Origin: Eledone cirrhosa
Lineage: Eukaryota
Reading direction: 5' to 3'
NCBI GenBank assembly: GCA_964016885.1
Contig: OZ024748.1
Location: 24,056,001 to 24,120,000 of the forward strand
DNA: 64,000 nucleotides
The position numbers were made by a program, and so were the translations under genes. The notes under the pieces are model-generated. The model saw only the letters and a list, made by a program, of their open reading frames with translations, did no database searches and was not told where the DNA came from. Below are positions 9,360-59,976 of the stretch, piece by piece. The first letter of the stretch is position 1. Every line of letters starts with the position of its first letter.

Positions 9360-9403
<44 letters not shown>

Positions 9404-9405
9404 TG

Positions 9406-9631
9406 TTTCTTTATTAGCCACAGGGGCACAAAAGAAGGGGACAAATACAAAGGGGGAAGTTTACATACAATAAAAACGTGTAAAATATTATCACAAATGC
9501 AATTTAAAAATTAGTCGATTTTCCCCAATAGGGGGAGACATTACATATGGGTAACACATACCCCCGAAAAAAAATGTGCAACCCTCATCTCCAGGAGTAC
9601 GAAGAGTTAGTACTCCTTTCCTCTCCTCCTC
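9406..9631 (-). mobile_element. 5'-truncated copy (3' UTR only) of the full-length Tx1-like LINE
   Basis: Reverse complement closely matches 31142-31368; flanked by (GA)n and (GATA)n. Confidence 0.9.
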
Positions 9632-11099: not shown

Positions 11100-11561
11100 G
11101 TCTTAAACCATTTAAGGCTTGGTGGGCCGGTGTTTATCCCGGTTTCATGACATGAAGCGGCTGAGAGTACAAGACTCCCCCCTGGACAGGACACCAGTCC
11201 ATCGCAGGGTTAAACCCTCAGCTATTGCTGGTACTCATTTTCAGCTGAGTATACTGGAGCAACGTGAAATGAAGTGTCTTTTGCTTAAGAACACAACATG
11301 CAACCCAGCCCTGAAATCGAAACCACGACATTATAATCGTAAGGCCAAGACACTTACCACTAGGTCACGCTAGAACCCTCACTGGACAGGATGCCAGTCC
11401 ATCACGTGGTTAAACCCTCAGCTATTGCTGGTACTTATTTTCAGTTGGGTATACAGGAGCAACGTGAAAGGAAGGACACAACACGCAACCTAGCGCAGGA
11501 ATTGAACCCATGATATTATAATCGTAAGTCCAACACCCTTACCACTAGGCCACGCGCCTCC
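11100..11561 (-). mobile_element. Tandem pair of tRNA-derived SINEs (family C)
   Basis: Two heads with A box (TGGCCTAGTGG / TGACCTAGTGG) and B box (GTTCAATTCC / TTTCGATTTC); shared TTTCACGTTGCTCC...AGTACCAGCAATAGCTGAGGG...GATGGACTGG..TCCTGTCCAG. Confidence 0.85.
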
Positions 11562-17284: not shown

Positions 17285-17690
17285 TGGCGTAGGTGAATTG
17301 GCAGTATCGGTAGAGGCATAGTTACGTCCCTTTACGGTTTGAGTTCAAATCCCGTCGAGGTTAACTTTGGCTTTCATCCATACGGGGGTCGATAAAATAA
17401 AGTACCAGTAATGCACTGGAAAATTGCTGTCCTTGTGCCAAAAGTAGAAACAATTATAGCTATCACAACGGCGGGTGGATTAGCAGTAGCGGAAGAGCAT
17501 TGGACAACATGCTTTGCTGCATATAGTTTCGTCCCTTTACGTTCTGAATTCAAATCCCACCGAGTTTAGCTTTGCCTTTCATCCTTACAGGGGTCGATAA
17601 AATAAAGTACCAGTAACACACTGGGTCGATTTAATTGACTTTCCCCTCCTTCAAAATTGTTCGCCTTGTGTCTAAATCAGAAACCATTAT
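17285..17690 (+). mobile_element. Two tandem SINE A copies
   Basis: A/B boxes and core present twice; second copy flanked by ATTATAGCTATCACA duplication. Confidence 0.85.
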
Positions 17691-17714
17691 AGCTATCACA
17701 CTACAGTCGTAACC

Positions 17715-20930: not shown

Positions 20931-21825
20931 AGTATACGTACGTGCAGATATATACACGTATAAACATGTATATATGTGTATACACGTATGAAAATATATA
21001 CATTTTTATGTATATATACACATTTACACATAAATACACGTATACACACAGGAACAGACTTACATGCACATGCACACACACATGTATAGGATTAAGTGCA
21101 CATACACTAAAACCTATAGAGTTACATGTACATATACACACATGCATAGACTTTTGCACATAGACGAGTGTAGAAAAAGCTCTTGTAAACACATAAACAC
21201 ATGTTTACTCATACATATGTATACATACTATACACATACTTACACACACATACTCATACGCGTACATAGACAAACTCGCAAACACATACACATACACACA
21301 CTCACATAGAACTACTGCAAATCTTCATTATTGTCGATAAAATAAAGTACCAGTAATGTACTGGGTATTTGCTGGCCTTGTGCCTAAAATAGAAACAATT
21401 ATTTTATTTCACCTCCTCCATTTTCACACCAACTACTGTTAAAGTGACCATAACTGACCACTCCTTCATATATCACTTAAGCCACACACACCGCCGCCAT
21501 AACCATCACCACCATCACTGCCGCCATCATCACTACTACTACCACCACCACCAACACCAACACTACTACTACTACCGCCACCACCACCCCAAAACCACCA
21601 CCACCACCACCACCACCACCACCACCACTGTAGGTAGGAGTGTAGGTAGGAGTGTATGTAGGAGTGTATGATATCAGAGCAGAGAGGGGGTAATAGTGAT
21701 GTTGTTGTTGTTGGTAGTGTTGGTATGTAAATGTGTGTGGAAGAAAGAAAGGAGAGACCGACAGGTAGTGAGAGAACCAGATAAATAGATAGATAGATTG
21801 ATAGATATATAGATAGATAGATATG

Positions 21826-23665
21826 TTTCTTTTATTTGCCACCAGGGCATCAACAGTGGGACAAGTACAAAGGGGGGAGTTTACACAAAAAGGCGTCCTC
21901 AATAAGGAGGAGGCAATAACAAAATATAAAAATAAAATAAGATATAACAAAAAATAAAATTTATAACAAAATCCTCAATAGAGAGGAGGCGCCTTGGGGG
22001 GTCGCACACACCCCCGAAAAAAGTGTGCAACCCTTTTCCTCAGGAGCACAGAGAGGGCGTGCTCCCTCGTTCCTTCCTCTTTTCCACCTACAGGCTTATG
22101 TAAAGAGAAGGCCCATTCACACGGGCCATTCTCGCCACTTTCACCCACCTTTCATAAAAACGACTGGGGTGGAGCACCTCTCTCTCCATCCTGATCCTTC
22201 TTCCGAAATGATATCGGAAGAAACGGACCAGTTGTTGGCCAGATGATCCTTCTTCCGAAATGATATCGGAAGAAACGGACCAGTTGTTGGCCAGAGAGAA
22301 AGGTGCCTGACCTCAGTCCTTTCAGACGCGTCCACCATACAACCTCTTTCGCCATGGCTATTACGCACAGAAACACCGCCTCTGCTTCATCTTTGAAGGG
22401 GGGAGGCGGCTTGATCATTACAATAGACTCGGTGGTCAACCGGATCGGTCCCACCCTTGACAGCAGTTGTTCGACATAGCCCCACAGATCGGCTACGCCC
22501 GAGCAGTGTACCAATGCGTGTGCAACGGTTTCCTCGTCGCACACGCATCTGGGACAGATCTTTTTGGCGGGGTCCCTACCCGGGCGCCCGTGTCTGTAGA
22601 GCCTTTCTCGAACGGGTAAAGCCCCTCGGTAGCACTGCCAGGCCAGGGACTTCTGGAAGTTGTCCATAGGTCCCGGGCTGAATGTCCTACCGAACAGGCT
22701 GGCCAGTTCGTCCTCCTCCATGTCTAGGGCTTTTCCGAGGGCGTCGTCGCACCTGCTGCGTACCAGCCCTCTATAGAATGTTGCAGTGGAGTCTCCACTG
22801 ATAACCGGATCCGCCTGCCAGAGGGCGGTGAGCGCCTGGGCACACTCAGTGTGCCAGGCGCCCAGTTTTCTCGGTCTTTGCTTGACCCAGGATTGCAGCT
22901 CGGTGAGTGAGACGAGTCTGGGAAAGGTTCGTCTCACAAACGAGGCCCACACCGGTTGTCCGGTGAGGAATACGTAGAGGTGCCGTAGCCTTAATGCGTG
23001 TTTACGCATCATTAGACACGGCATCCCCAGCCCTCCTTTCGAAGGGTGTTGACAGCAGATGGATCTCCTCACCATAGGAGCCCGCCTCTTCCAAAGGAAT
23101 TGGAAGAGCGCGCGCTCCATCTTGGTGAGGGTTTCCCTTGGGCAGGGCACTACGGTCAGGCGGTAGTAGATGACGGACGCTATATAAGTGTTCGCCACCT
23201 CCGCCCGACCTTTCAGGGATAGTTTGCAACTGGCCCACTTCTGGGTCAGTGCAAACACCCTGTTCGTAACCTCCGCCCAGTTTTTCTCCACCTGGAGGTC
23301 CGGTCCGAACCAGACCCCGAGCAACTTCACCGGGCCCTCCGTCCAGCGTCCGACGACGCCATCGGAGGGCATCGGTCTGCCCCTCCACGTGCCGAGTTGC
23401 AAACCGATCGACTTGTCCCGGTTCAGCTTAGCCCCTGTGAACTTTTCGTACTCCTCCAGTAAGGTGCCGACCGCCTCGATTTCGGAGGCCGTCGACACCA
23501 TTACTGTCACGTCATCGGCGTAGGCTGACACCGCTTTCCGCAATCCCGGTTCCAAAGGGATGCCCTGCAACAACTCCAACTTCCGCAGTAGTGGCTCGAG
23601 AGTCAACACATACAGAAGGGAGGAGAGAGGGCACCCTTGTCGGATGGACCGCGCGATTTTGAACG
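21826..23665 (-). mobile_element. 5'-truncated Tx1-like LINE (sister subfamily): ORF2 C-terminal half plus 3' UTR
   Basis: Translation [14 protein letters not shown]...AYADDV...CPRCVCDEETVAHALVHC closely parallels ORF2 at 27694-31131; frameshifting ~52-bp tandem duplication near 22194-22295; (GATA)n at the 3' flank. Confidence 0.95.
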
Positions 23666-25260: not shown

Positions 25261-25743
25261 TATTGTATGTTGATGGGGGATGGTTGGTGAGATATAATTA
25301 TAACACCTTGCCATTGTAGGGGGCAGATATGTGTTAGTAGGGCTGTAATAAAAGGGAGTTTGTAAGGTAATAGAGGAGGTGTGTGTTGGGTTGGATAACA
25401 GACACAGATTAGCCAATCAATGGCCTTCAGAAATTTGGTCATGATCCCTGCTAAACAAACCCTTTCTTGCTCTATCTATTTATCTATCTATCTGTCTATG
25501 TCTATCTATCTATCTATCTCTCTATCAGTCGTGTGTCACTTCGCGGAGAAGTTTCCGTTAATTTATGTAAGGAAAAAACGTGAGTTTTTAGTTCAATTTT
25601 ATATCATTGTGTAACTTGACCACCCGTCTGGACCTTCAGGTGGTGGGTCAACTCATTTTCGCCCCTTCAGGGGCGGAATATCCATTTAAAAAATTTTTCT
25701 CCATCGAATCTTGGAAAAAATATTGTAAAATTTTGATTACGTT

Positions 25744-27660
25744 ATGAACGCTGCGTCCAACGATAATGGTGGTGGAGAGGCGGTAAGACTACAAAGCTCG
25801 CAGTCAACAACGTCTTCTTCACTAGATACTATAGAGATGGAAAGACAAAATGAAAATAAAAAAACGAATTCACATCCAAACAACACAAATGACACCAAAC
25901 AGCTCAATGACAACAAAAATAACAGCAAAACCAATAATGATGATAAAAGCAACAATGATAACAACAACAAAGAAAAAAATAAAGACAACGCCAATAACAC
26001 CAGCATCAAAGACAACAACAACACCAAGGAAAATACGGATGATACCAACATCGGTGACAACAAGAATAACAACAAGAATAACAACAATAATGACAACACC
26101 ACCAATACGGATTCCACAAAGAAACCAAAAATCTCCTTTGCGGAGAAAGTTCAAAAGAAAGAACAATTGATATATCTCGACATAACAAATGCTGAACACC
26201 TTTTAAAGGACGCTAAGAGATATGTCACCTTCGAAAAAAATGGTGCTTTCAGTATCAATTCTCCGGTAGAAATTCGCAAGGAAACTGCTCTCAAAACGAT
26301 AGTTTTTAGGACAGTTTCCAATTCTACCCGAAAACCAGTCCAATTGTCACAGAAAGATATTGAACTGGTTTTCAAAGATTCAATGAATGATATTGCATTC
26401 ATTCAAAGAAGCAAACTTTTTGGGAGTATTTCGGTACTGATGAAGGATCAATTGACGGCCCAAAATTACTCTGTGTCGCCAATTGTATCCAACCTGTACA
26501 CCTTTTTCCCTACATACATGGGAAAAAGGACACAAAAGATCAGAATCACAAGTGTCACACCAAAGGTGAACATATGGTGGATACTGTGCGGCTTCATCAA
26601 TTTTGATGAAGACAGAATACTGTCAGTAGGCAAGTCCCCCAGAGATGTATTCAATGGGACTAGCATTGAAGTTCTGGTGCAAATGAGCCCAGAGCGAATA
26701 GCTATGATCCCACAGCGTGTACTTCTGGACGGACTTACCTACATAAACCTTTCGGTTGAGGGTAGGCGGCCTTCATGTTACCATTGCTTTAGCAGGGGTC
26801 ACCTGAGGGCTTCCTGTCCTAAACTAATGAACCAAAAAAAGGCTCTTCTGCCAACACCCATCAAAACAACACAACCACCAACACCACCACTACAACAACA
26901 ACACCAACACACAAAAATAACCACAACAAACACAGTCCCACCCAACCTCACTCCACCTAAAACCACTGCAAAATCACATACAGACACAACAGCTCCCCAA
27001 GACATACCCCTCCCCAATCACACAGACGATACAACAGATGAGGCTATCTCGCCATCACCCAGTGAAGACGAGGGAGAACCCCATCGCTCGAAAAGAAAGA
27101 AAAGACATCACAAAAGCAAAAAACCAGCAAACACTACCACAAACATACAACCACCAACACAAACAACAAAAATATCACAAACAAAACCCCCACCTCCTGA
27201 AAACAAAATACCTACAACAAAACGAAAGCACACACAAGAACTACAGACAAAAACAAACACAACACAAGAAAATTACACTTACACTTACATAAACACTGAA
27301 AACAAAACACTAATGGAGACCATTACGAACGACCCTTCGGTTTTCACCGAAGGGAAAACTTTCGCCCACTCTATAAAAAATAGCAAAAAAATGAACCTAA
27401 AACTGATTAGGGTCCCTATACAAACTTATAGGTCCCTAAAAGAAACATTTGAGAAGGATGTGGGGAATTCCTGCGTGAAACCACTCAACCGCGTCCTTCT
27501 CAAATACCTCCCCACCCCAGACACCCCCATTCCACCAGACCCCACCCCACCAAACATCTGCGTCCCCACCCCGCCGGAAACCACCACCCATCCAGACAAC
27601 CCCTCCAACACCCCCATGGAAATCGTGCGGCCTGGTCCCCAGGAGGCGAAGGGTGAGTGA
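25744..27660 (+). CDS. LINE ORF1, gag-like nucleic-acid-binding protein, 638 aa
   Basis: CCHC knuckle CYHCFSRGHLRASC, Asn-rich N-terminus, Pro/Thr-rich C-terminus; lies directly upstream of ORF2. Confidence 0.9.
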   Translation: MNAASNDNGGGEAVRLQSSQSTTSSSLDTIEMERQNENKKTNSHPNNTNDTKQLNDNKNNSKTNNDDKSNNDNNNKEKNKDNANNTSIKDNNNTKENTDDTNIGDNKNNNKNNNNNDNTTNTDSTKKPKISFAEKVQKKEQLIYLDITNAEHLLKDAKRYVTFEKNGAFSINSPVEIRKETALKTIVFRTVSNSTRKPVQLSQKDIELVFKDSMNDIAFIQRSKLFGSISVLMKDQLTAQNYSVSPIVSNLYTFFPTYMGKRTQKIRITSVTPKVNIWWILCGFINFDEDRILSVGKSPRDVFNGTSIEVLVQMSPERIAMIPQRVLLDGLTYINLSVEGRRPSCYHCFSRGHLRASCPKLMNQKKALLPTPIKTTQPPTPPLQQQHQHTKITTTNTVPPNLTPPKTTAKSHTDTTAPQDIPLPNHTDDTTDEAISPSPSEDEGEPHRSKRKKRHHKSKKPANTTTNIQPPTQTTKISQTKPPPPENKIPTTKRKHTQELQTKTNTTQENYTYTYINTENKTLMETITNDPSVFTEGKTFAHSIKNSKKMNLKLIRVPIQTYRSLKETFEKDVGNSCVKPLNRVLLKYLPTPDTPIPPDPTPPNICVPTPPETTTHPDNPSNTPMEIVRPGPQEAKGE

Positions 27661-27693
27661 TCTCTTTTCCTCTTTTAACTTTTCAGCACCAAC

Positions 27694-30600
27694 ATGGCCA
27701 ATATAAGAGTTGGATGTGTGAACGTACGCGGCCTGGGGATGCCCTGGAAACAGGGCAAACTCTTAAACGACCTCAGGTCACACAGTTTGGATGTGGTAGC
27801 CATTTGCGAGTCCAGGATCCACGGCGAGCGACAGCTGGCCCCCATCTTCGATGACTTTGAGATCTACGCATCTCTCTGTCAACCGGGGGGTGGGGGCGGA
27901 GTTGCCGTTTTGCTGCGGAAACACCTGGGCCTCGTAACACAGACGGTACATCTGGACCCGGAGGGTCGACTGGTGGTCCTAGACGTTGACGGTAGTGAAG
28001 GTGGAGCCTTCAGGCTGGTGGCCGCATATGCCCCATCCGGGACACCGCGGCCAGACTTCTTCAAACGTCTAGAGACTTTTCTGGGAACGTCCCGCTCCTT
28101 GCTTTTAGTGGGGGACTGGAATGGAATCCTAGATGCACGTTGGGACTATGTGGGAGCATGTCCCGACAAAGGGGGGTGTAACAGCCTCAAACAGTTAATC
28201 GACCGATTTGACCTGGCCGATAGATATCGACTAGATTTTCCGACTGCGCCAATGTGGACGTGGAGTAATCGCAGCGGAACATCTAGATCGTACCTAGATA
28301 GGGTTCTAGTTAGAAATAAGGATAGGGACATGTTAAGCTGTCCACAAATGTTCATGGTTGCCTATTCAGATCACAAACTAGTGACCTGCATGGCCAACCT
28401 TGATAGAACCCATAGACAAGGACCCGGCTACTGGAAGCTGAACTTGTCGTTACCGACAAGCAAAGCCTACAGTAGACGGATTAGCACTTTAGTTAAACAG
28501 CACTTGACAGGGGCCATTGTCAACAACAGATGGTGGTACTCTCTCAAGAGGGCAGTTAGATTAGACTCGATAGTTTTTAGTAAAGAATTAGCGTTAGATA
28601 GAAATAGAACCGAGAAGGAACTGGTAGATAAAGTAGAAGAGGCAATTAGAAGTGGCAACGTAGCCAGCGTGCTAGCAACGAGAACGGCCTTGGACCAGTT
28701 CTTCGACGCAAAGCACGAGGGCTGCGTTGTCAGAAGCAAAATACGTGCTCTGGGAAACGAGGGAGCCAAAGCTGTTAGCTGGGCCCGAGTGACGGAGGCA
28801 AAAAGTGGCAACAAGTCCACGATTCGGTCTTTGAAGGACCAAAACGGACGCGTGATACGTGAGCCGAAGCAGATGTGTGCGGCTTTTCAGCGGCACTTTG
28901 CTCGGCTGTTCGGGGGGAGCGGCGCGCCGGGAGAGGCTATGGATTTCGGTCCATACCTCGACGGCCTACCGCGACTCTCGGACAGTGGGGCGAAGTTCTG
29001 CGAAAAGCTGATTTCAGCCACTGAGATAGGGGACGCGCTGAGCCAATGCGGCAAACGCAAATCTCCAGGTCTCGACGGTCTACCCTACGAATTTTACGTA
29101 GCAATGCCGGACTTATTCTCCGGTCTCCTGGAAGCGGTCTACTGCAACTGGCAACAGAACGGGAGAATTCCCAGTTCTGTAGCCGGGGGCGTGGTCACAC
29201 TAATCAGGAAGGACGAGAATAAGGGGGATGACATAGGCAACTTCCGGCCCATAACTCTGCTAAACACAGAGTTACAGATTTTGGCCAAGGTGTTGGCAAA
29301 GAGGCTGGCGCTTGTCGTCGAGAACCTGGTGGGAGAAGCGCAGACATGCGCGATCCCGACCAGGTCCATACACGACAACCTCCACCTCATGCGATACATC
29401 ATAGAGAGGGTAGGGTGTAAACCCGGCTTCGGTGGGGCCCTGATCAACTTGGATCAGTCTAAGGCTTTCGATAGGGTTGACCATCATTACCTGGATGCGG
29501 TGCTCGAGGCGGCAGGCTTCGGACCCGTGTTCAGGGGCTGGATTGCTGCAATGCACAACAGCAACATCTGCTCAAGGGTCAAGGTGAACGGTTACCTCTC
29601 GGAGCCGTTCCATATTACGCGATCCATTCGACAGGGATGCCCTCTCTCCTCCCTTCTGTACGTACTGACTCTCGAGCCACTACTGCGGAAGCTGGAGCTA
29701 TTGCAGGGCATCCCTCTGGAACCGGGACTGCGGAAAGCGGCGTCGGCCTACGCCGACGACGTGACAGTAATGGTGTCGAGCGCCTCGCAAATCGAGGAAG
29801 TCGGCACCTTACTAAAGGAATACGAAAGTCTCACAGGAGCGAAGCTGAACCGGGACAAGTCCATCGGTTTGCAACTCGGATCGTGGAGAGGCAGACCGAT
29901 GCCTTCCGATGGCGTCGTCGGACGCTGGACGGAAGGACCGGTAAAGCTGCTCGGGGTCTGGTTTGGTCCGGACCTCCAGGTGGAGAAGAACTGGAACGAA
30001 GTGACGGCCAAGGTGTTTGCACTCACCCAGAAGTGGGCCGAGTGCAAACTATCCTTGAAAGGTCGAGCGGAGGTGGCGAACACTTTTATAGCGTCCGCCA
30101 TCTACTACCGCTTGACCGTCGTGCCTTGTCCAGCCAAAACGCTCGCCAAAATGGAGCGCGCCCTCTTCCGATTCCTTTGGAAGAGGCGGGCTCCTTTGGT
30201 AAGAAGATCCATCTGCTGCCAACACCCTTCTAACGGAGGGCTGGGGATGCCGTGGTTGACGATGCTCAAACACGCGCTCAGGCTGCGGCATCTCTACGTA
30301 TTCCTCACCGGACAACCGGTGTGGGCCCCGTTCGTGAGGCGAGCCTTCCCACGACTCGTCTCGCTGACCGAGCTGCAGTCCTGGGTCAAGCAGAGACCGA
30401 GGAAAATGGGCGACTGGCACATCGAATGTGCTCAGGCGCTCACAGCCCTCCGGCAGGCGGACCCAGCGATCAGTGGAGACTCCACTTCGTCATTCTATAG
30501 AGGGTTGGTCCGCAGCAAGTGCGACGACGCGCTCGGTGAAACTCTAGGCGTGGAGGAAGATGAACTGGCCAGTCTGTTCGGTAGGACCTTCCGCCCGGGA

Positions 30601-31131
30601 CCGATGGACAACTTCCAAAAGTCCCTGGCCTGGCAGTGCTACCGAGGAGCTCTACCAGTTCGAGACAAGCTCTACAGACATGGGCGCCCGGGCAGGGACC
30701 CTGCAAAAAAGATCTGTCCGAGGTGCGTGCGAGACGAAGAAACCGTCGCGCACGCATTCATACACTGCCCGGGCGTCACTGACCTGTGGGGCTATGTAGA
30801 ACGACTATTGTCGCGGGTGGGACCAATCCAGTTGACCACCGAGTCCATTGTCATGATCAAACCGCCACCCTCCTTCAAAAACGAAGGAGAGGCGGTTTTC
30901 CTTTGTGTGATAGCTATGGCGAAAGAGGTTGTATGGTGGACAAGGTTGAAAGGGCTGAGGTCAGACACCTTTCTCTCCGGCCAACAACTGATTCTTTTTT
31001 TCAAATACCACTTTGGAAGAAGAATCAGGATGGAGAGAGAGGTGCTGTACCCCAGCAAGTTTTATGAAAGGTGGGTGAAAGTGGCGAGAATGGCCCGAGT
31101 GAATGGGCCTTCTCTCTATATCAGCCTGTAG
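27694..31131 (+). CDS. LINE ORF2: APE endonuclease, reverse transcriptase and C-terminal zinc finger, 1145 aa
   Basis: Endonuclease motifs NVRGL, GDWN, LDRV, SDH; RT motifs PGLDG, FRPITLLN, LDQSKAFDRV, RQGCPLS, YADD; CPRC...ETVAHAFIHC. Confidence 0.98.
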   Translation: MANIRVGCVNVRGLGMPWKQGKLLNDLRSHSLDVVAICESRIHGERQLAPIFDDFEIYASLCQPGGGGGVAVLLRKHLGLVTQTVHLDPEGRLVVLDVDGSEGGAFRLVAAYAPSGTPRPDFFKRLETFLGTSRSLLLVGDWNGILDARWDYVGACPDKGGCNSLKQLIDRFDLADRYRLDFPTAPMWTWSNRSGTSRSYLDRVLVRNKDRDMLSCPQMFMVAYSDHKLVTCMANLDRTHRQGPGYWKLNLSLPTSKAYSRRISTLVKQHLTGAIVNNRWWYSLKRAVRLDSIVFSKELALDRNRTEKELVDKVEEAIRSGNVASVLATRTALDQFFDAKHEGCVVRSKIRALGNEGAKAVSWARVTEAKSGNKSTIRSLKDQNGRVIREPKQMCAAFQRHFARLFGGSGAPGEAMDFGPYLDGLPRLSDSGAKFCEKLISATEIGDALSQCGKRKSPGLDGLPYEFYVAMPDLFSGLLEAVYCNWQQNGRIPSSVAGGVVTLIRKDENKGDDIGNFRPITLLNTELQILAKVLAKRLALVVENLVGEAQTCAIPTRSIHDNLHLMRYIIERVGCKPGFGGALINLDQSKAFDRVDHHYLDAVLEAAGFGPVFRGWIAAMHNSNICSRVKVNGYLSEPFHITRSIRQGCPLSSLLYVLTLEPLLRKLELLQGIPLEPGLRKAASAYADDVTVMVSSASQIEEVGTLLKEYESLTGAKLNRDKSIGLQLGSWRGRPMPSDGVVGRWTEGPVKLLGVWFGPDLQVEKNWNEVTAKVFALTQKWAECKLSLKGRAEVANTFIASAIYYRLTVVPCPAKTLAKMERALFRFLWKRRAPLVRRSICCQHPSNGGLGMPWLTMLKHALRLRHLYVFLTGQPVWAPFVRRAFPRLVSLTELQSWVKQRPRKMGDWHIECAQALTALRQADPAISGDSTSSFYRGLVRSKCDDALGETLGVEEDELASLFGRTFRPGPMDNFQKSLAWQCYRGALPVRDKLYRHGRPGRDPAKKICPRCVRDEETVAHAFIHCPGVTDLWGYVERLLSRVGPIQLTTESIVMIKPPPSFKNEGEAVFLCVIAMAKEVVWWTRLKGLRSDTFLSGQQLILFFKYHFGRRIRMEREVLYPSKFYERWVKVARMARVNGPSLYISL

Positions 31132-31420
31132 GTTGAGGAAAAGGAGGAGGAGAGGAAAGGAGTACAAGCTCTTCGTACTCCTGGAGATGAGGGTTGCACA
31201 TTTTTTTCGGGGGTCTGTGTTACCCATATAAACTGTCTCCCTCTATTGGGGAAAATCGACTAACTTTTAAATTCCATCTGTGATAACATTTTACACGTTT
31301 TTATTGTATGTAAACTTCCCCCTTTGTATTTGTCCCCTTCTTTTGTGCCCCTGTGGCTAATAAAGAAATATATCTATCTGTCTATGTCCATCTATCTATC
31401 TATCTATCTATCTATCTATA

Positions 31421-31480
<60 letters not shown>

Positions 31481-31484
<4 letters not shown>

Positions 31485-31858
31485 ATTTCGGAAGAAGGAT
31501 CAGGATGGAGAGAGAGGTGCTGCACCCCAGCCGTTTTTATGAAAGATGGGTGAAAGTGGCGAGAATGGCCCGTGTGAATGGGCCTTCACTCTACATCAGA
31601 CTATAGGTGAGGAAGATGAAAGATCAAGGAGCTCCTGAGGAGAAGGGTTGCACACTTTTTTCGGGGGGGGGTGCGACCCCCCCAAGGCGCCTCCTCCCTA
31701 TTGAGGATTTTGTTATTAAATTTATTTTTGTTATATTTTATATATTATTTTTATATTTTGTTATTGCCTCCTTCTTATTGAGGACGCCTTTTTATGTAAA
31801 CTCCCCACATTGTACTTATTCCACTATTTGATGCCCTGGTGGCAAATAAAAAGAAAGT
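31481..31858 (+). mobile_element. 5'-truncated sister-subfamily Tx1-like copy in the same TATC array
   Basis: Matches the ORF2 end and 3' UTR of the 21826-23665 copy; TATC repeats on both sides. Confidence 0.9.
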
Positions 31859-31898
31859 TATCTATCTATCTATCTATTAATATGTCTCTGTCGGTCTG

Positions 31899-32798: not shown

Positions 32799-33204
32799 AA
32801 TAAACGTGCTGCGGAGTTGCAAATGGGTTACATATGAATAAAGTGGTCCTTCATCAGTGATCTTCCAACCATCATCGGTATTTCTTCGCTTTAAAGACCA
32901 TATACCTCCGGTTGGTGCGAGCAACGGCTAAAGAAAGTCGTTGGGACATGTAAATAAAGGGAACAGTGAGAGTGTAAACAAACAAAGATGGTGAAGCAAC
33001 GAAAAGTGAGGAAGAGCGAATCAAGTCCACAAATTTCCATGAATATAAGTTCGGTGAAATCGTGACGAGAGAGAATAAAGACCATCAAACCTGGTTGAAA
33101 TGTGAGCAAGGAAGGAATTTCGCACAGCTCTAACGGGAGGAAGAAGGGGTCTAGCCTGTGAATTCGGTAAACATAAGTTCTGTGAAATCGTAGACGAGAG
33201 AGAG

Positions 33205-33247
<43 letters not shown>

Positions 33248-33254
<7 letters not shown>

Positions 33255-33449
33255 GTGAACAACACAATATATAACTACTGCATTACCAAAGGTTTCAGGA
33301 CTCTAGACAATATTAATATACGTCTAGATCGTTCATCAGACAGATAACCTCATTATCTGATGAACGATCTAGACGTATGTTAATTTTGTCTAGGGTCCTG
33401 AAACCTTTGGTAATGCAGTAGTTATATATTGTGTTGTTTACTTTCTAAT
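33248..33449. mobile_element. ~200-bp palindrome with hammerhead-like motif in both arms
   Basis: CTGATGA (33357), stem II GATCTAGAC...GTCTAGGGTC, GAAACC-TTT-GGTA (33400-33412). Confidence 0.75.
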
Positions 33450-43314: not shown

Positions 43315-43610
43315 TTGACGGAGCATGTCCGAATGGTTAAGAAGTTCGTTTCGCAAACATTAGGTCCTGTGTACGATCCCACTGCGGAGCATCTTAGGCA
43401 AGTGTCATTCAACATAACCTCAAGTTAACCCACGCCTTGTGAGGGAAATTGGGTAGACAGAAACTGTTCGGAAGTCTGTCGGGAGCACTGTACCTGTAAT
43501 TCAAAGATCCAGCCTTGCCACATATCATGTCACGCTGAGAATTATGTTGAGGAATGCTCAATCACGTAGACGTTAATTTCACATGCAGGCTCCGTTGGTT
43601 GAAAAGCCTT
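43315..43610 (+). mobile_element. SINE family B (tRNA head, CORE-like body, extended tail)
   Basis: CCGAATGGTTAAG head, CTTAGGCAAGTGTC, GCCTTGTGAG...GGTAGACAGAAACTG; tail shared with 49080-49290 and 55085-55420. Confidence 0.7.
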
Positions 43611-43849
43611 AATACCCATCTTCGAAAGCGACGGAGGTCCATTCCATAAATGCAATGGTCTCGGTTATACTCTCCAATACTGACGAAGAAACATAGACTG
43701 GAACAGTCATCATCGAAACCAACGGAGGGCCATTCTAGCCAGAAAACCTGAGGATAAGTATTTTTCCTAAAATATTCATTTTCTATGGCGACAGGACTGC
43801 TTTTATTATTTTTTCTTCGCTTTGCTATGTTATTGATGTCTGTATATTT

Positions 43850-48979: not shown

Positions 48980-49555
48980 TAACCATCACATCTGACCACA
49001 CCAGCTAAGTTAGCGCACTCAATAATCTCGTCGGAGTTAAATACCGAGTCCAGGTAATGTTGAATGGGTTGTGTGTATTACAAGTCGACGGAGACTGTGT
49101 AGAAGCCCGTTGGACGAACTTTACTTGTAATTCAAATGGTCAGCTTTGTCACACATTATGTCAAGCTGAATCTTCCTGAGAATTGCGGCTGTGAGTGCTC
49201 GGCTGATTGCACATTAACATGAGCCGGCACTTCCGTTGATCGAACAACTGAAGCATTCATCGTCGAAACTGACAGGGGCCCATTCCAGGTCATGTGACAC
49301 TGCAAGTGGTATATGAGCAAAAATACGTTGAGACAGAAATTCAAACAGCAGCTCAACAAGAAACTTACCATCAACTATCAATGTGAAAATAGTTGAGTGT
49401 AGTTTATCTGAAGCATTGTGAAATATGTGGTTGAGAATGGTTTGTGGTAAAGTCGGTATAATATGAAGGTGGAACTAGAGGAGAGTTAAAGGAAGACAGT
49501 ACAATAGATTTTACATTTTAAATGTATTCAACCCAATGCAAATGATCAAAATAAT

Positions 49556-49735
49556 TGTTTCTACTTTTGGCACAAAGCCAGCAATTACCCAGTGCATTAC
49601 TGGTACTTTATTTTATCAACCCCGTAAGGATGAAAGGCAAGTTGACCTCGGCGGGATTTGAACTCAGTTCGTGAAGGGACGTAACTGTGCTGCAAAGCAT
49701 GGCGTCTGACCCTCTACCGATACTGCCAATCCACC
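49556..49735 (-). mobile_element. Young SINE A with 25-bp TSD
   Basis: ACCCAATGCAAATGATCA(A/T)AATAAT at 49531-49555 and 49736-49760. Confidence 0.9.
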
Positions 49736-50394
49736 ACCCAATGCAAATGATCATAATAATAGTCGATCACTTTAAATAACAGCTATGAAGAATCAGATAA
49801 ATTACCCCTGGTGACGGAAGAAAGTGGACAGTGGTACCTCTCATTAAAATGAATAATTTTTCCAATAAAAATGAACAAATTTTTCGACATTTTTTTTTGG
49901 GGGGGGGGGTATAGTTGCACCTACGCACACGTAACCCCCCCCCCACGTAATACGTCACTGAGTGATTGACTAACAATATGGTTATTTACGTTGGGTAGTT
50001 TTACATTTCATAATATTTCGAGATTTGAACCTCTTTATCAAGTGAGGAGAAAAGAGTTTTCATTTGTTGTGACTGACCGCCACTGGAGGTTGGTCGGCCT
50101 TATGTAACCCAAAATAATTTGGCTGTGATGAAAATATACGGTAGTGATATTACTGTAAAATACTACTTTATACAATGTGTAACTGGCCTGTAACTATATC
50201 ACATTAAAACAAGGAAGGCACACTTAATTATCTGGTTTAAGTAGGTGTAAACTCAATATTTACTTTAGATGTAAATATTGATTGAGTAGATGTAAACTCA
50301 ATCAATATTTACATCAGATGTAAATATTTTGACTGTGAAACATATGTAATGGTCGATATACAATAATAACATTCTAAAGTGAAACTTCGTTATA

Positions 50395-51806: not shown

Positions 51807-52482
51807 TATATGTATGTATATATGTATGTATACACGTATGTATGTATATACGTATGTATGTATATATGTATATATATATATATATGTGTATGTATATATG
51901 TATATATGTATGTATGTATGTATGTATATATGTATGTATGTATATATGTATGTATATTTCTATACGTGTGTATAAATATATGTATGTATATATAATTCTC
52001 ATTGCCTTGTAAATTGATCCTCTTGTTATTGTTTCCTTCTATTACTGATCAAGATCTTAACACTTCCACTGATCAACATTTTTTTACTGGTCATGAATAA
52101 CCTTTCAGCTATCAATTATTTACTGGGCAAGAGATTCTCTTTGAAAATCCTTTCTAGATCTACTTTTCTGAATTGAACTACACTCTAGTTTAGGCTTTTC
52201 ACTAGATTCTTCTCAAATAATTCTAGTTTCATCAAAGATTACATCCAGGCTTCACTATGATTAATTTTCTCTTGTTTTCCTTTTCAACTCGCTCACAGCA
52301 AAGATATTTTGGGATCGTTTGTCTTTGGATCAAGTGATTCCATTCTTTCTGAGAACTCTTCTGGTCGTGTTATTTTCCCCATTTACTATTTTGCGCAGCC
52401 AACCTCTGGATTCTGTTTGACATAAGAAATATACTCGCATGTCATGGTTAGATTACACTATATTGTCATTAGTTAGTCCAGT

Positions 52483-52676
52483 AGGCGGTGGATTGGCTTC
52501 ATTGCCAGAGCGTCAGACACAATGCTTTGCAGCATAGAGTTATGGCCCTTTATGTTCTGAGTTCAAATCTCGCCGATGTTAACTTTGCCCTACATCCTTA
52601 CGGAGTCGATAAAATAAAGCACCAGTAATACACTGGGGGTAATTGCTGGCCTAGTGCCAAAAGTAGAAACAATTAT
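52483..52676 (+). mobile_element. SINE A with ~16-bp TSD
   Basis: ATTAGTTAGTCCAGTA / ATTATTTAGTCCACTA flanks. Confidence 0.85.
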
Positions 52677-54319
52677 TTAGTCCACTAGTAAATGGCGGTT
52701 TTTCTTGGTAGATCGTCAAAGTGTTCGTTTCAAAGTGTCCTTTTGTCGGTGTTGTCATCAAAGTGTGGCACCATGGCATCGCTTGCCTCTGTAAGAAATA
52801 TTCCCTCACTCAAGCAAAACCTAACAGAAATTTCTCTTTGCCGAGTGTCTGTGGAAATCGAGCAATTCGTTGTCTGTCGACAAATAATTCCTTATAAAAC
52901 AGATATTGATGCATCTGTTTGACGGTCAGACTCAATGACCGCCTATAAGAAATGTTTGGTAATGCTGTACTATTTATATATCATTCTTATCAGAACTATT
53001 TCCTGTTCTGGTAAACACACCTTGCCATATAAGCTTTCTGATAAATTTCGATGGTAGCGTATAATATCATCTTTCATCCACTTGCCTATTATCAGCTGGT
53101 CTACTAGCTTTAGAGCCTAACATTACTTTCCTTCTTGGTCCCTGTCATTCATGGCTTTTGACGATAACCTTGGCTCTTCATGTATCGATCTACTTTTCTC
53201 ATAGAAATATTATATGAGGTGTTTAAACAATTCACTCCAAGTTCTTTACTTTATTTAAGCTTCTCGATTTGGCAAGGAGGACACTTCGACCCAATGATAA
53301 CATACTCGATAGTTTTATAGGCTGCGGATCTTTTATTCAACGTCTATATACTTCATTTGCTGTCTCAACTTATAGTTGTGCCTGTTTTGATGGTGACGCG
53401 ATTCCCAAAACCTATTATAAAACTTTATAGCTGCTACATCAATACGGAATTTGAGATTGGCGAATGTACCATGATTACTGTCAGTCGGGGTAAGTTAACT
53501 GAGTTATTAAACACTGACAATGAAATTGACCATTCGATAAAAGAATTAAGACCAGAGAAATTATGAACTGGGGATCAATGAAATTGGAGTAATACGACAT
53601 TTCAAAACGAAGGAGTAAATCTGAAAGCAATAAACACCTTGGCAGTCCCAGCAGTAAGCTACAGCTTTAATGTGATAAACTAGGAACTGCAAGAAATCTG
53701 AATTCTAAGCACAAAAACAAGAAAATTACTAAATTCAAATTACATTACTGAAAATCCGGTAAACATCACATTTATATCCCCTGACAGAATGGAGGAAGGC
53801 TTTATGTAACAGATGATCTATGGCGCCTCGACAGATGGGCTTGACAATTTACTGAAAAATAAAACTATATATATATATGACCTACCTTACAGTCAGTTGC
53901 AAAAGATGAGACAATCAAAAGGGAGCATCAATACAAGAAACGCAGGCATAAAGGAAAAACAAAAAGCACTGCAATTACACATTCTTCTAAAAACAGAGAC
54001 ACACTTAGAATTAAAGATACAAACATATTACAAAGATCGCATATATAATAATAAAAAATATATTTGGAAGTTGTACTTGGTTGGCAAGTAGATCTGAGAT
54101 CGTGTGTTCAAATTGAAATAATTTAATCTTGAAAGAGCCGTGGGTAAAGGTAGGTAGGTAGGTAAAAGGCCCTTACCTCTTGATTGAGTCGCAGGGGCGT
54201 CATCCTGGCATAAGGTGTGTCTTTGGGCATTTTAAGCCTGGTGGATCTCATCTTATTCCTCATCAGATCCGATATCTTCCAGAGAAAAAAAAGTGATAAA
54301 GACTAATAGAGCAAGAGTC

Positions 54320-54509: not shown

Positions 54510-54592
54510 AGTTTTAGTTTTATTTCTTTATCTATTTGTATTGTCTTTGTATTGTCCCCTTTCTTGTTGCGCCCTTGTGGCTAATAAAGAAA
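54510..54592 (+). mobile_element. Very short Tx1-like 3' terminus followed by TCTATCTA
   Basis: TTTGTATTGTCCCCTT...GCCCTTGTGGCTAATAAAGAAA resembles 31323-31368. Confidence 0.75.
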
Positions 54593-55084
54593 TCTATCTA
54601 TTTGACAGACAACAAAGCTCCTCCTAACTGAAAGAGAAATATTGAAAGCCAGTTTATTATTGTTTTGTTTAGTGTCTCCAAACTAGATAATACCGGAGCT
54701 CAATATAAAATCTCAAAATTTAGTATCTCAATACCTGGTGTGTTGTCAGATTGGTGAGTCCACACAAGCCACATCCTTATTGGAGTAGAGGTACTTCGCT
54801 AGCCACTTCGGAAATGTATCAAGATACATGACAGGGTTGGCTAACTATCTAGCTAACCAGTTACTCTGCTGAAAGATATAAACGTCCTTGAAGTATTTTT
54901 TTTTTAATAAGACTCGGTTGCTCCAGGAACATGAGAAAAGTTTGAAAATCTGGAATGTGTGAAATCTATCGAAGAAATGAAGAAATATCAGTGAACTGTT
55001 CTCATATTGTAACAAAAGAGACAACATCTCCCGGTATTTATTGCAGGGGCAAAACAAAACAAAAAGATTGGAATGGATCTTCGT

Positions 55085-55420
55085 GGGTCTCGACGATAAA
55101 TATTCCAGTTATACAATCAACGGAACAGCCTGCTTATGAAATTAATGTGTAAGTGGCCGAGCATTCTACAGATACGTGTAGCCATCAAGTAATTCTCAAG
55201 GAGATTCAGCGTGACAAAATATGTGTGACGATACTGGGTGGTTCTTTGAATTACAAGTAGAGTTCATCTGACTGGCTTCCAAACTGTTCCTTGTCTTACC
55301 AATTTCTCTCACACGTGACCGGAAGCTATGGTAAATAACACTTGACCAAGATTCCACGTATGGGATCGAACCGAAGATATAATGACTGCGAAGCAAACCC
55401 CTTAACCATTCGGCCATGTT
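55085..55420 (-). mobile_element. SINE family B
   Basis: Head ATGGCCGAATGGTTAAG...GGTTCGATCCC; tail shared with the 43315 copy. Confidence 0.7.
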
Positions 55421-56455: not shown

Positions 56456-56774
56456 TTTTTTATCATTATTGATATTTCTCCTGTCATGTCCTCCGTTATT
56501 GCTGTTTAACCAATGGAACGGCGTTGTTTCACTTCTTACAAACTCCATATTTTTTCAGAACTGGGTCATTGGAAATAGTTTGATGTCTATATTGTAGTAA
56601 TAGCTAACAATATAACACTGATGATGACGACGATGATGATGAGAAGAAGAAGAAGAAGAAGAAGAAGAAGAAGAAGAAGAAGAAGAAGAAGAAGAAATGG
56701 TGATGGTGAGAGTGGGAGCGACATTTGAGATATAAAGTTGGAAAAAGAAGTTAATGAGGGCTAATAATAATAAT

Positions 56775-56871
56775 TGTTTCTACTTTAGGCACAAGGCCAG
56801 CAATTATCCAGTGCATTACTGGTACTTTATTTTATCGACCCCGTAAGGATGAAAGGCAAAGTCAACCTCGG
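56775..56871 (-). mobile_element. 5'-truncated young SINE A at a CTAATAATAATAAT target
   Basis: Flanked on both sides by GGCTAATAATAATAAT. Confidence 0.9.
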
Positions 56872-56885
56872 CTAATAATAATAAT

Positions 56886-57424
56886 GATTTCATTTATTGG
56901 CCACAAGGGCCGACATGTAGGGGACAATACAAAGACAAGGACAGTGGGAGGTTTACAATAAGGTGGAGTAAAAGTGTACAATGGCAAGACTAATTTAACA
57001 ATGAAGATATAAAAATATAAAATAAACTATGCATAAATATAACAAAATAAATTCCCCTACAGGGGGTGGACGACCCTGGGGTGACTCAGGTACCCCACCA
57101 ATCCTGAACCACCCTGCGCTTCTAGGGCACCCAGGGAGAGCACCTCTCTCCTCAAATTAGTTAGCCTATAGGCGCATAGTCAGAGTAGGCCCATTCACAC
57201 GGGCCATTCTCGCCACATTCATCCACCTTTTAGCAAATGTACTGGGGGGCAGCACTTCTCTCTCCACCCTCACCTTCCTTTCCAGGTGAAACTTGAAGAA
57301 GTTGATGAGGGAAAAGTGTCTTCAGTCCTTTCAATCTGGTCCACCATATAACCTCTTTCGCAACTGCCTCCAGATAGAGGAAAATAGCCTGCTCTTCCTG
57401 GCCAAAAGGCGGTGGCGGGTCGAT
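56886..57424 (-). mobile_element. 5'-truncated Tx1-like LINE of an (ATT)n-associated family
   Basis: GGCCCATTCACACGGGCCATTCTCGCCAC is identical to the ORF2 end of the other copies (VARMARVNGP); different 3' UTR; TSD CTAATAATAATAAT. Confidence 0.85.
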
Positions 57425-57495
57425 CTAATAATAATAATCATAATTATTTTTTTTTTTTTTTCATTATCATTAGTATTATTATTATTGCTATTATT

Positions 57496-57745
57496 GTAAA
57501 TTAAAGGTGGAAAACTGGGAGAGGGCACTTGCCCTGGTGGTCAGGGCCACTGTGGTCTTTTAATGGGCTTTCTCCACAAATGTCCCTCGGAAGTCTCCCC
57601 CCTATTGGGGAATTTTTTCTTTGTTATTTTATTTCATCCTCTGTTTTTTTTTACACGCAGAAATGCCCATTTGTACCGTCCTGTATTGTCCTGTACTGTC
57701 CTTAATGTCTACTTTATGTAAACCCTTGTGGTTAATAAAGAAAAC
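57496..57745 (+). mobile_element. Tx1-like 3' UTR fragment in (ATT)n
   Basis: CCCCTATTGGGG and CCCTTGTGGTTAATAAAGAAA terminus; 18-bp TSD ATTATTATTGCTATTATT (57478-57495 / 57746-57763). Confidence 0.8.
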
Positions 57746-59680: not shown

Positions 59681-59976
59681 CTTCCGGTTTAATAGTCTCA
59701 CAAATGTTTACCAATAGAGAGAGAGTCGGTTTCTAACATAGACACAAGATTCTCTCATTGGAATTTACACAACATCAACTAGGTAGATATGTATGTATGC
59801 ATGTATGTATGTATGTATGTTACGTATGTATGTATATATGTACGTATGTACGTATGTATGTATGCACATGTACGTACGTACGTATGTATGTATGTTACAT
59901 ATGTAAGTATGTATGTATGTTTGTATGTTACGTATGTAAGTATGTATGTATGTAAGTATGTATGTAAGTATATATG

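Follow-up and report, generated by a model that had tools for sequence, protein, structure and literature searches.

ATT-type Tx1-like LINEs as probable partners of SINE A, an abundant tRNA-derived SINE of the octopod Eledone cirrhosa

SINE A, an abundant short interspersed element of Eledone cirrhosa, is probably copied in trans by the ORF2 protein of one or more ATT-type, Tx1-like LINE families. The SINE and these LINEs have in common both a motif in the 3' tail and target duplications that begin with ATTAT, and on these two grounds SINE A likely borrows an ATT-type enzyme. An ATT-type Tx1-like element, from one or more families, is thus the likely partner, and its use of the tail hairpin is a prediction from modelled folds. 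An earlier note on a 64,000-nt stretch of this genome (the window) had proposed a Tx1-dependent tRNA SINE and called the pairing uncommon. Sequence comparison supports the proposal, with an ATT-type Tx1-like partner, and the pairing does look uncommon: SINEs that share a tail with an L1-clade LINE are seldom seen, with three cases, from plants or algae, in the parts of Ohshima 2013 (PMC3747384) drawn on here.

The note had described a SINE and a LINE in tandem at one target, leaving three copies of a 14-mer. All three are exact and lie where it had placed them, at 56761, 56872 and 57425, and a search of both strands of the window found no others. Along the minus strand come, in turn, a 14-mer, the LINE fragment (56886-57424), a second 14-mer, the SINE fragment (56775-56872) and a third 14-mer. 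The first, 5' copy of this 14-bp target duplication (57425..57438, minus strand, by sequence comparison) ends in two bases that are also the next two of the LINE consensus. It is followed by 539 bp of a 5'-truncated ATT-type Tx1-like LINE of subfamily ATT-1a (56886..57424, minus), comprising the end of ORF2 and the 3' UTR, which was identified by tblastn to the window's full-length ORF2. Across its last 200 nt the fragment is 97.0% identical to the ATT-1a consensus; it is 92.2% identical to a full-length ATT-1 copy, L280, and 78.8% to an intact sister copy, L273. A predicted fold and a pair table place a 3' hairpin near the LINE end (56899..56911, minus), with a 4-bp stem and a CTTGT loop (56903-56907), 17 nt from the junction. 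The middle copy of the duplication (56872..56885, minus) is both the 3' side of the LINE and the 5' side of the SINE, and leads into 98 bp of 5'-truncated, short-form SINE A (core and tail; 56775..56872, minus; 95/98 to the SINE consensus), the first base of which also belongs to the duplication. The SINE hairpin, predicted by the same means (56788..56798, minus), has a 3-bp stem and a CTTGT loop (56791-56795), 16 nt from the junction, and has G-C as its second pair, in place of the C-G of LINE ends. The third, 3' copy of the duplication (56761..56774, minus) extends to 16 bp if the 5' microhomology of the SINE is counted, and both 5' junctions of the tandem have two to three bases of microhomology with the element. 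The LINE terminus quoted in the note is found as quoted; the SINE terminus it quoted is the commoner variant, and the copy at this locus differs from it by a T at the variable position. At -1 the original site carries G, a base seen there in 0/35 SINE sites and 2/16 LINE sites, and the LINE end offers C, so we favour, without regarding it as proven, an order in which the LINE inserted first and the SINE then entered its 3' duplication.

The three other SINE A duplications that the note had listed as beginning with ATTA are all real. The first belongs to a long-form copy at 17453..17700 (plus strand), with an exact 15-bp duplication (17453/17686), which sits directly behind another SINE copy in tandem at one target. 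The second surrounds a short-form copy at 49531..49760 (minus; 25-bp duplication, 49736-49760/49531-49555, one mismatch). The third, around a short-form copy at 52468..52688 (plus; 17-bp duplication, 52468/52672, two mismatches), starts at 52468, one base away from the approximate position that had been given, 52469.

SINE A occurs in a short form of about 185 bp, with a median identity of 93.4% to its consensus (n=73), and in an older, long form of about 215 bp (85.4%, n=29). We found 110 profile matches in 590 kb of evenly spaced sequence, and genome-wide there are 123,970 exact 30-nt SINE tails before ATTA and two before TATC. The element is short, non-coding, dispersed and present in high copy number, with target duplications and 5'-truncated copies, and is a tRNA-derived SINE, whichever tRNA gene was its source. 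Its head has both A and B box patterns in a window copy and aligns to a genomic tRNA-Ala gene, with 0/500 shuffles as good (14 tRNA hits of four named isotypes were tried); ARAGORN and Rfam, run on SINE copies, found no tRNA. The central domain may be 'Nin-like' (among the superfamilies Nin/Deu, CORE and Meta), and there is no poly(A) tail. The window also holds other dispersed short repeats with tRNA-like ends (43324-43646, 55069-55418, 49094-49287 and 11182-11555) and a near-perfect, MITE-like inverted repeat of about 250 bp (33202-33449).

The ATT-type LINEs belong to the L1 clade. The best solved relative of the full-length ORF2 in the window is human L1 ORF2p (E 4e-49; R2, 4e-23), and both this ORF2 and that of L273 have an AP endonuclease (Exo_endo_phos) and an RVT_1 domain just N-terminal of zf-RVT. 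One CCHC knuckle of the form CX2CX4HX4C is present in each of the two ORF1s examined, and a Pfam search of ORF1 returned no family, Transposase_22 included. In the parts of PMC5203782 drawn on here, ORF1s with RRM and zf-CCHC in non-mammalian animals are linked to Tx1. From the domains, the knuckle and the microsatellite targets, the ATT-type LINEs are likely members of the Tx1 group; homologue searches of the LINE proteins returned none carrying a Tx1 name, and the closest named homologue is from Argonauta hians (69%).

Across the 3.0 Gb of the genome, exact 27-nt ends of the ATT-1a-type family number 2,528 and matches to the ATT-3 pattern 2,601; ATT-2 and an old family, ATT-4, are further families besides ATT-1. 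The full-length copy L280 has a broken ORF2, and L273, from a sister subfamily of ATT-1, has an intact 500-aa ORF1 and an open, intact 1150-aa ORF2. These LINEs end without a poly(A) tail and have a microsatellite-type target preference: an ATT run stands directly after 70/70 ATT-1 ends, as selection dictated, and also 5' of 10/10 full-length copies. Related TATC-type families, 70-71% identical to the ATT type in ORF2, are represented in the window by a full-length LINE (25527..31368, plus) with a CCHC-knuckle ORF1 and a 1145-aa ORF2. With TATC arrays on both sides, it served as a control family that has the same tail hairpin and a different target. Several TATC-type families lie in the window (21779-23663, 25527-31870, 9400-9450 and 54540-54595), among them one full-length element that has open ORF1 and ORF2 and a truncated sister copy in tandem behind it. 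Elsewhere, full-length ATT-type elements form head-to-tail chains at G000:C1:43657900-43713900 (L272, L273, L290), and in one chain a SINE fragment separates two LINEs; some ATT-1 5' junctions appear inverted or rearranged (L155, L247, L257).

That the SINE A terminus resembles the LINE terminus, as the note had claimed, is true beyond chance for 13 of 14 Tx1-like ends when the comparison is anchored at the junction, although the match is short and diverged. The final 26 nt of the short and the long SINE form were set against 24 LINE ends, without gaps and anchored at the junction, the 26-nt length having been picked after the match had been seen. Eleven of 12 Tx1-like ends matched the SINE at 14-18 of 26 positions (p<=0.0085) and two further ones at 17-19 (0/20,000 shuffles as high), giving 13/14 at 14-19/26 (54-73%); the end of the old ATT-4 family, at 10-12/26, did not match. 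The other clades sampled were CR1, RTE, Dong/R4 and CRE, and their ten ends gave 5-11/26 (p>=0.12), with RTE-c, CR1-b and CRE each represented by a single copy; these clade labels are presumptive, judged by eye from ORF motifs. A MAFFT alignment of eight tails added nothing beyond the ungapped comparison. TATC-type tails match the SINE as well as ATT-type ones do (14-18/26), and it is the target, not the SINE tail, that points to the ATT type. In 13/14 Tx1-like ends the predicted fold has a 3-4 bp stem and a five-base loop of the CTTGT type, 15-17 nt from the junction; the SINE has its CTTGT loop at 16 nt, and a GAAA motif is common to both. The predicted SINE hairpin is weak, at -3 to -5 kcal/mol.

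Set against other clades, the resemblance stood at the termini, since none of the CR1, RTE, Dong/R4 and CRE ends compared matched the SINE, but not throughout the elements, since two internal, non-terminal matches score higher. The best unanchored matches to the SINE tail lie in the ATT-2 5' UTR (23/29) and in a Dong 3' UTR (18/21), not in a Tx1 tail; whole-element or long-piece p values among 14 tests were 0.01 for the ATT-2 5' UTR, 0.04 for Dong, 0.02 for RTE-a and 0.03 for ATT-1c. The first of these matches bears on whether the hairpin is read at all. Tx1-like enzymes might drive the SINE through target pairing or loose recognition with the hairpin unread, the tail likeness being a relic, a convergence or a derivative of the 5' UTR. 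Consistent with this, tail identity is low, the ATT-2 5' UTR match has the SINE's own stem polarity and was equalled by 0/100 whole-element shuffles, and the crocodilian SINEU was assigned to Tx1-Mar with no shared tail in the parts of PMC4494074 drawn on here. However, the 5' UTR match comes from a set of 14 whole-element tests, and families differ in its loop. In the tails, by comparison, 13 families whose ORF2 identity is 70-76% where measured retain loop, spacing and GAAA at the precise 3' position, and the second stem pair, C-G in 13/13 Tx1-like ends in which the loop was found, is G-C in both SINE forms, a swap that keeps the stem. We therefore consider an unread hairpin unlikely, and a Tx1-like enzyme that would recognise the SINE tail remains our preferred reading. 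The ATT-2 5' UTR hairpin, 35-50 nt before ORF1 (L275, minus, ~350-395), is also present in L041, L189, L197, L253, L263 and L269, and the ATT-1 subfamilies have a longer stem and other loops. A second cluster of SINE-like hairpins, at first a candidate for a new partner, turned out to be Tx1 5' UTR.

The targets tie the SINE to the ATT type. Duplications were called for 79/175 SINE copies with intact ends, versus 20/300 mismatched flank pairs used as a control; their median length is 16 bp and they begin with ATTAT. No extra unit stands between SINE end and duplication in 65/79 copies, and the ATT that follows a SINE belongs mostly to the target rather than to the tail. Among 136 SINE copies from unselected or position-ordered sequence, a duplication was called in 55, and 40 of these 55 were solo; in 35 solo copies without extra units ATTAT is present at 91-100% per position, with C (65%) or T (31%) and never G at -1. 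For the LINEs, duplications of 10-39 bp (median 17.5) were called in 16/38 copies (8/28 truncated and 8/10 full-length), with no call in 22/38. LINE duplications that are SINE-like, with unique sequence, measure 14 and 16 bp (L306, L328) and 18 bp. The last is in the window, where an exact duplication (57478-57495/57746-57763) that begins with ATTATT and holds a diagnostic GCT flanks the 3' end of a 5'-truncated ATT-2 LINE (57496..57745, plus). The note had named differing SINE and LINE target logos as evidence against its proposal; the logos agree in nick position, in the ATTAT(T) core and in duplication length, but not in the depth of the ATT run: at least 9 nt of pure ATT opens 14/16 LINE duplications and 5/35 SINE duplications (p=8e-7), a length that about 7% (77/1,059) of available (ATT)2+ sites reach.

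SINEs and LINEs also stack at one site, in both orders. A same-strand SINE follows 22/70 position-ordered ATT-1 ends (two locus pairs look duplicated), versus 5/67 other (ATT)3+ runs (p=4.7e-4), 3/22 (ATT)4+ runs (p=0.17) and 28/984 other (ATT)2+ runs. The corresponding counts are 5/30 after ATT-3-pattern ends, 2/38 after ATT-2, 1/55 after CR1-a, 0/114 after RTE, Dong and TATC-type ends together and 23/128 after SINE ends; the ATT-2 and CR1-a rates are lowered because those sets are mostly best-scoring young copies. In the reverse order, a SINE tail stands just 5' of the LINE in 5/28 cases. Identity to consensus, as a measure of age, is 96.9% for the SINE, 96.7% for ATT-1a and 96.1% for ATT-2 by-catch, and the SINE and the ATT-type LINEs were concurrently active; CR1-a, at 96.4% (n=4) and 98.2% (n=28), overlaps the SINE in age as well. 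L090-L119 and L210-L239 hold a young CR1-like family in which many 945-aa frames are open and the 3' ends are nearly identical.

A search for SINEs with a long Tx1 tail gave two matches only, both single SINE-LINE joins. One-step template-switch chimeras were considered as the main source of the tandems and set aside: four were flagged among 37 end-pattern matches (SINE <=70 nt), of which L017 and L021 are genuine direct fusions, another has a short duplication and the last is false. With a third direct join, L166, these have the LINE end joined straight to the SINE through 2-5 bases of microhomology, with no ATT between. They may reflect a template switch or a target deletion, and 5' microhomology joining fits equally.

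Might the partner belong to another clade altogether? An unsampled, rare or extinct LINE (L2, I/Nimb, Proto2 or Hero) with an ATT end could have driven the SINE, with Tx1 stacking a product of shared targets. Tx1 targets are more repeat-like than those of the SINE, the parts of PMC8967140 and PMC13282606 drawn on here report L2 and Hero from coleoids, and unselected sequence was scanned over only about 0.65 Mb. Yet a de novo scan for ends before ATTATT (1.36 Mb in 272 sequences, most around known families) recognised only the SINE, Tx1-like LINEs and CR1-a; a fuzzy tail scan outside SINEs returned only Tx1 tails and one Dong stretch; and the likeness of the SINE to Tx1 ends already exceeds chance, all of which makes such a LINE improbable. 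A Dong/R4 partner, either among the TAA-repeat families or in a CATA family with the 18/21 match in its 3' UTR, is very improbable. Dong/R4 elements do use the same microsatellite and nest with the SINE and Tx1 elements, and the internal match reaches p=0.002 within 250 nt (0.04 over a 2.4-kb piece); but the TAA families read TAA on the sense strand, opposite to the ATT of the SINE, the match sits 49-50 nt in from the terminus of a family that ends in CATA repeats, anchored ends give 6-11/26, and 0/53 Dong ends are followed by a SINE. CR1-a, which ends in (ATT)n on the sense strand as the SINE does, with C before the repeat and an overlapping age, is the least likely partner, given a tail match of 8/26 and a SINE after a single one of its ends; inspection by eye of 15 5'-truncated copies, five of them in tandem repeats where none could be judged, showed no duplication that starts with ATT. 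RTE-a and RTE-b end in GAT repeats. The CATA-tailed Dong/R4 match to the long SINE tail (L046:5540-5565, minus; window ~59700-59760) falls within the loop of an inverted repeat, and in L004, L010, L012, L014 and L068 TAA-tailed Dong/R4 elements lie tail-to-tail with ATT-type Tx1 ends in one microsatellite.

How might an ATT-type Tx1-like enzyme copy SINE A? Non-LTR elements nick their target, reverse-transcribe their RNA from the nicked end and make a second nick downstream, which leaves a duplication. Here, the ATT-type enzyme would bind the predicted 3' hairpin of the RNA, and its endonuclease would nick the bottom strand opposite Y|ATTATT. RNA that reads through into the flank could then pair, via AUUAU, with the nicked end and prime reverse transcription. 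Each insertion would rebuild the site at its own 3' junction, and chains of stacked elements would follow from this. The AUUAU(U) on SINE RNA would be short and the (AUU)n on LINE RNA long, and the short read-through of the SINE might, as a conjecture, explain both the looser SINE targets and the near-absence of SINEs from TATC arrays; TATC-type enzymes have the same tail, yet almost no SINEs are found at TATC. Tentatively, then, target choice may have two steps, a nick at Y|ATTAT and a pairing of read-through RNA that sets repeat length, so that the enzyme would be a specialist in cis and a generalist in trans.

Several known systems resemble parts of this proposal; the papers named here are drawn on in part. 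SINEU of crocodilians was assigned to Tx1-Mar by target and age (Kojima 2015, PMC4494074), and the assignment of SINE A is of the same kind; SINEU also has tandem copies around one duplication and, in some families, a weaker target preference. It differs in its U1/U2 heads, poly(A) tail, Mariner target and lack of a LINE that shares its 3' end, where SINE A has a tRNA-like head, no poly(A), a shared 3' motif and an ATT target. Kibi, Koshi and crocodilian Tx1 families target (TC)n, (TTC)n, (TTCC)n and (TTTC)n (PMC4494074); like the ATT-type LINEs, they are L1-clade elements that insert in microsatellites, here (ATT)n and (TATC)n, and the passages of that paper drawn on name no partner SINE for them. 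Stringent L1-clade pairs are LINE1-1_ZM with ZmSINE2/3 and L1-1_CR with SINEX-3_CR (PMC3747384), which, unlike SINE A, come from plants and algae, share ends of about 45-80 nt and are not microsatellite-specific; Table 1 of that paper (58 pairs), as drawn on here, names no Tx1 pair and no mollusc. For SART1Bm and R1Bm, target-like RNA was proposed to anneal to the nicked strand (PMC7265360). As in our proposal, a short target-like RNA pairs, and a 3' UTR donor is mobilised in trans; unlike the ATT Tx1-like LINEs, these are bench-tested, poly(A)-tailed R1-clade elements with telomeric or rDNA targets.

Among cephalopods, the octopus OK, OR1 and OR2 SINEs are tRNA-derived (Ohshima and Okada 1994, cited in PMC4824008 and PMC4758252), and as tRNA-derived octopod SINEs we set them beside SINE A by description only. 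SINEs are the largest or second-largest repeat class in octopus genomes, according to the portions of PMC8967140 and PMC13282606 drawn on, which name no partner for them. The portions used of those two papers and of PMC4758252, PMC4824008, PMC5786205 and PMC5203782 mention no Tx1 partner for a cephalopod SINE, and the literature covered holds no report of one, though subscription papers, Repbase Reports or supplements may. SINEU, assigned to Tx1 with no shared tail, was known already.

It is possible, though we put it forward with some doubt, that the dominant tRNA SINE of this octopod genome is driven by an animal Tx1 lineage, an L1-clade enzyme that is stringent, reads the hairpin and chooses its targets in two steps. 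If the partnership is real, a tRNA SINE dependent on Tx1 would give the L1 clade an animal example of stringent recognition, and sister LINE families with one tail and two targets would offer a natural experiment on what sets target choice.
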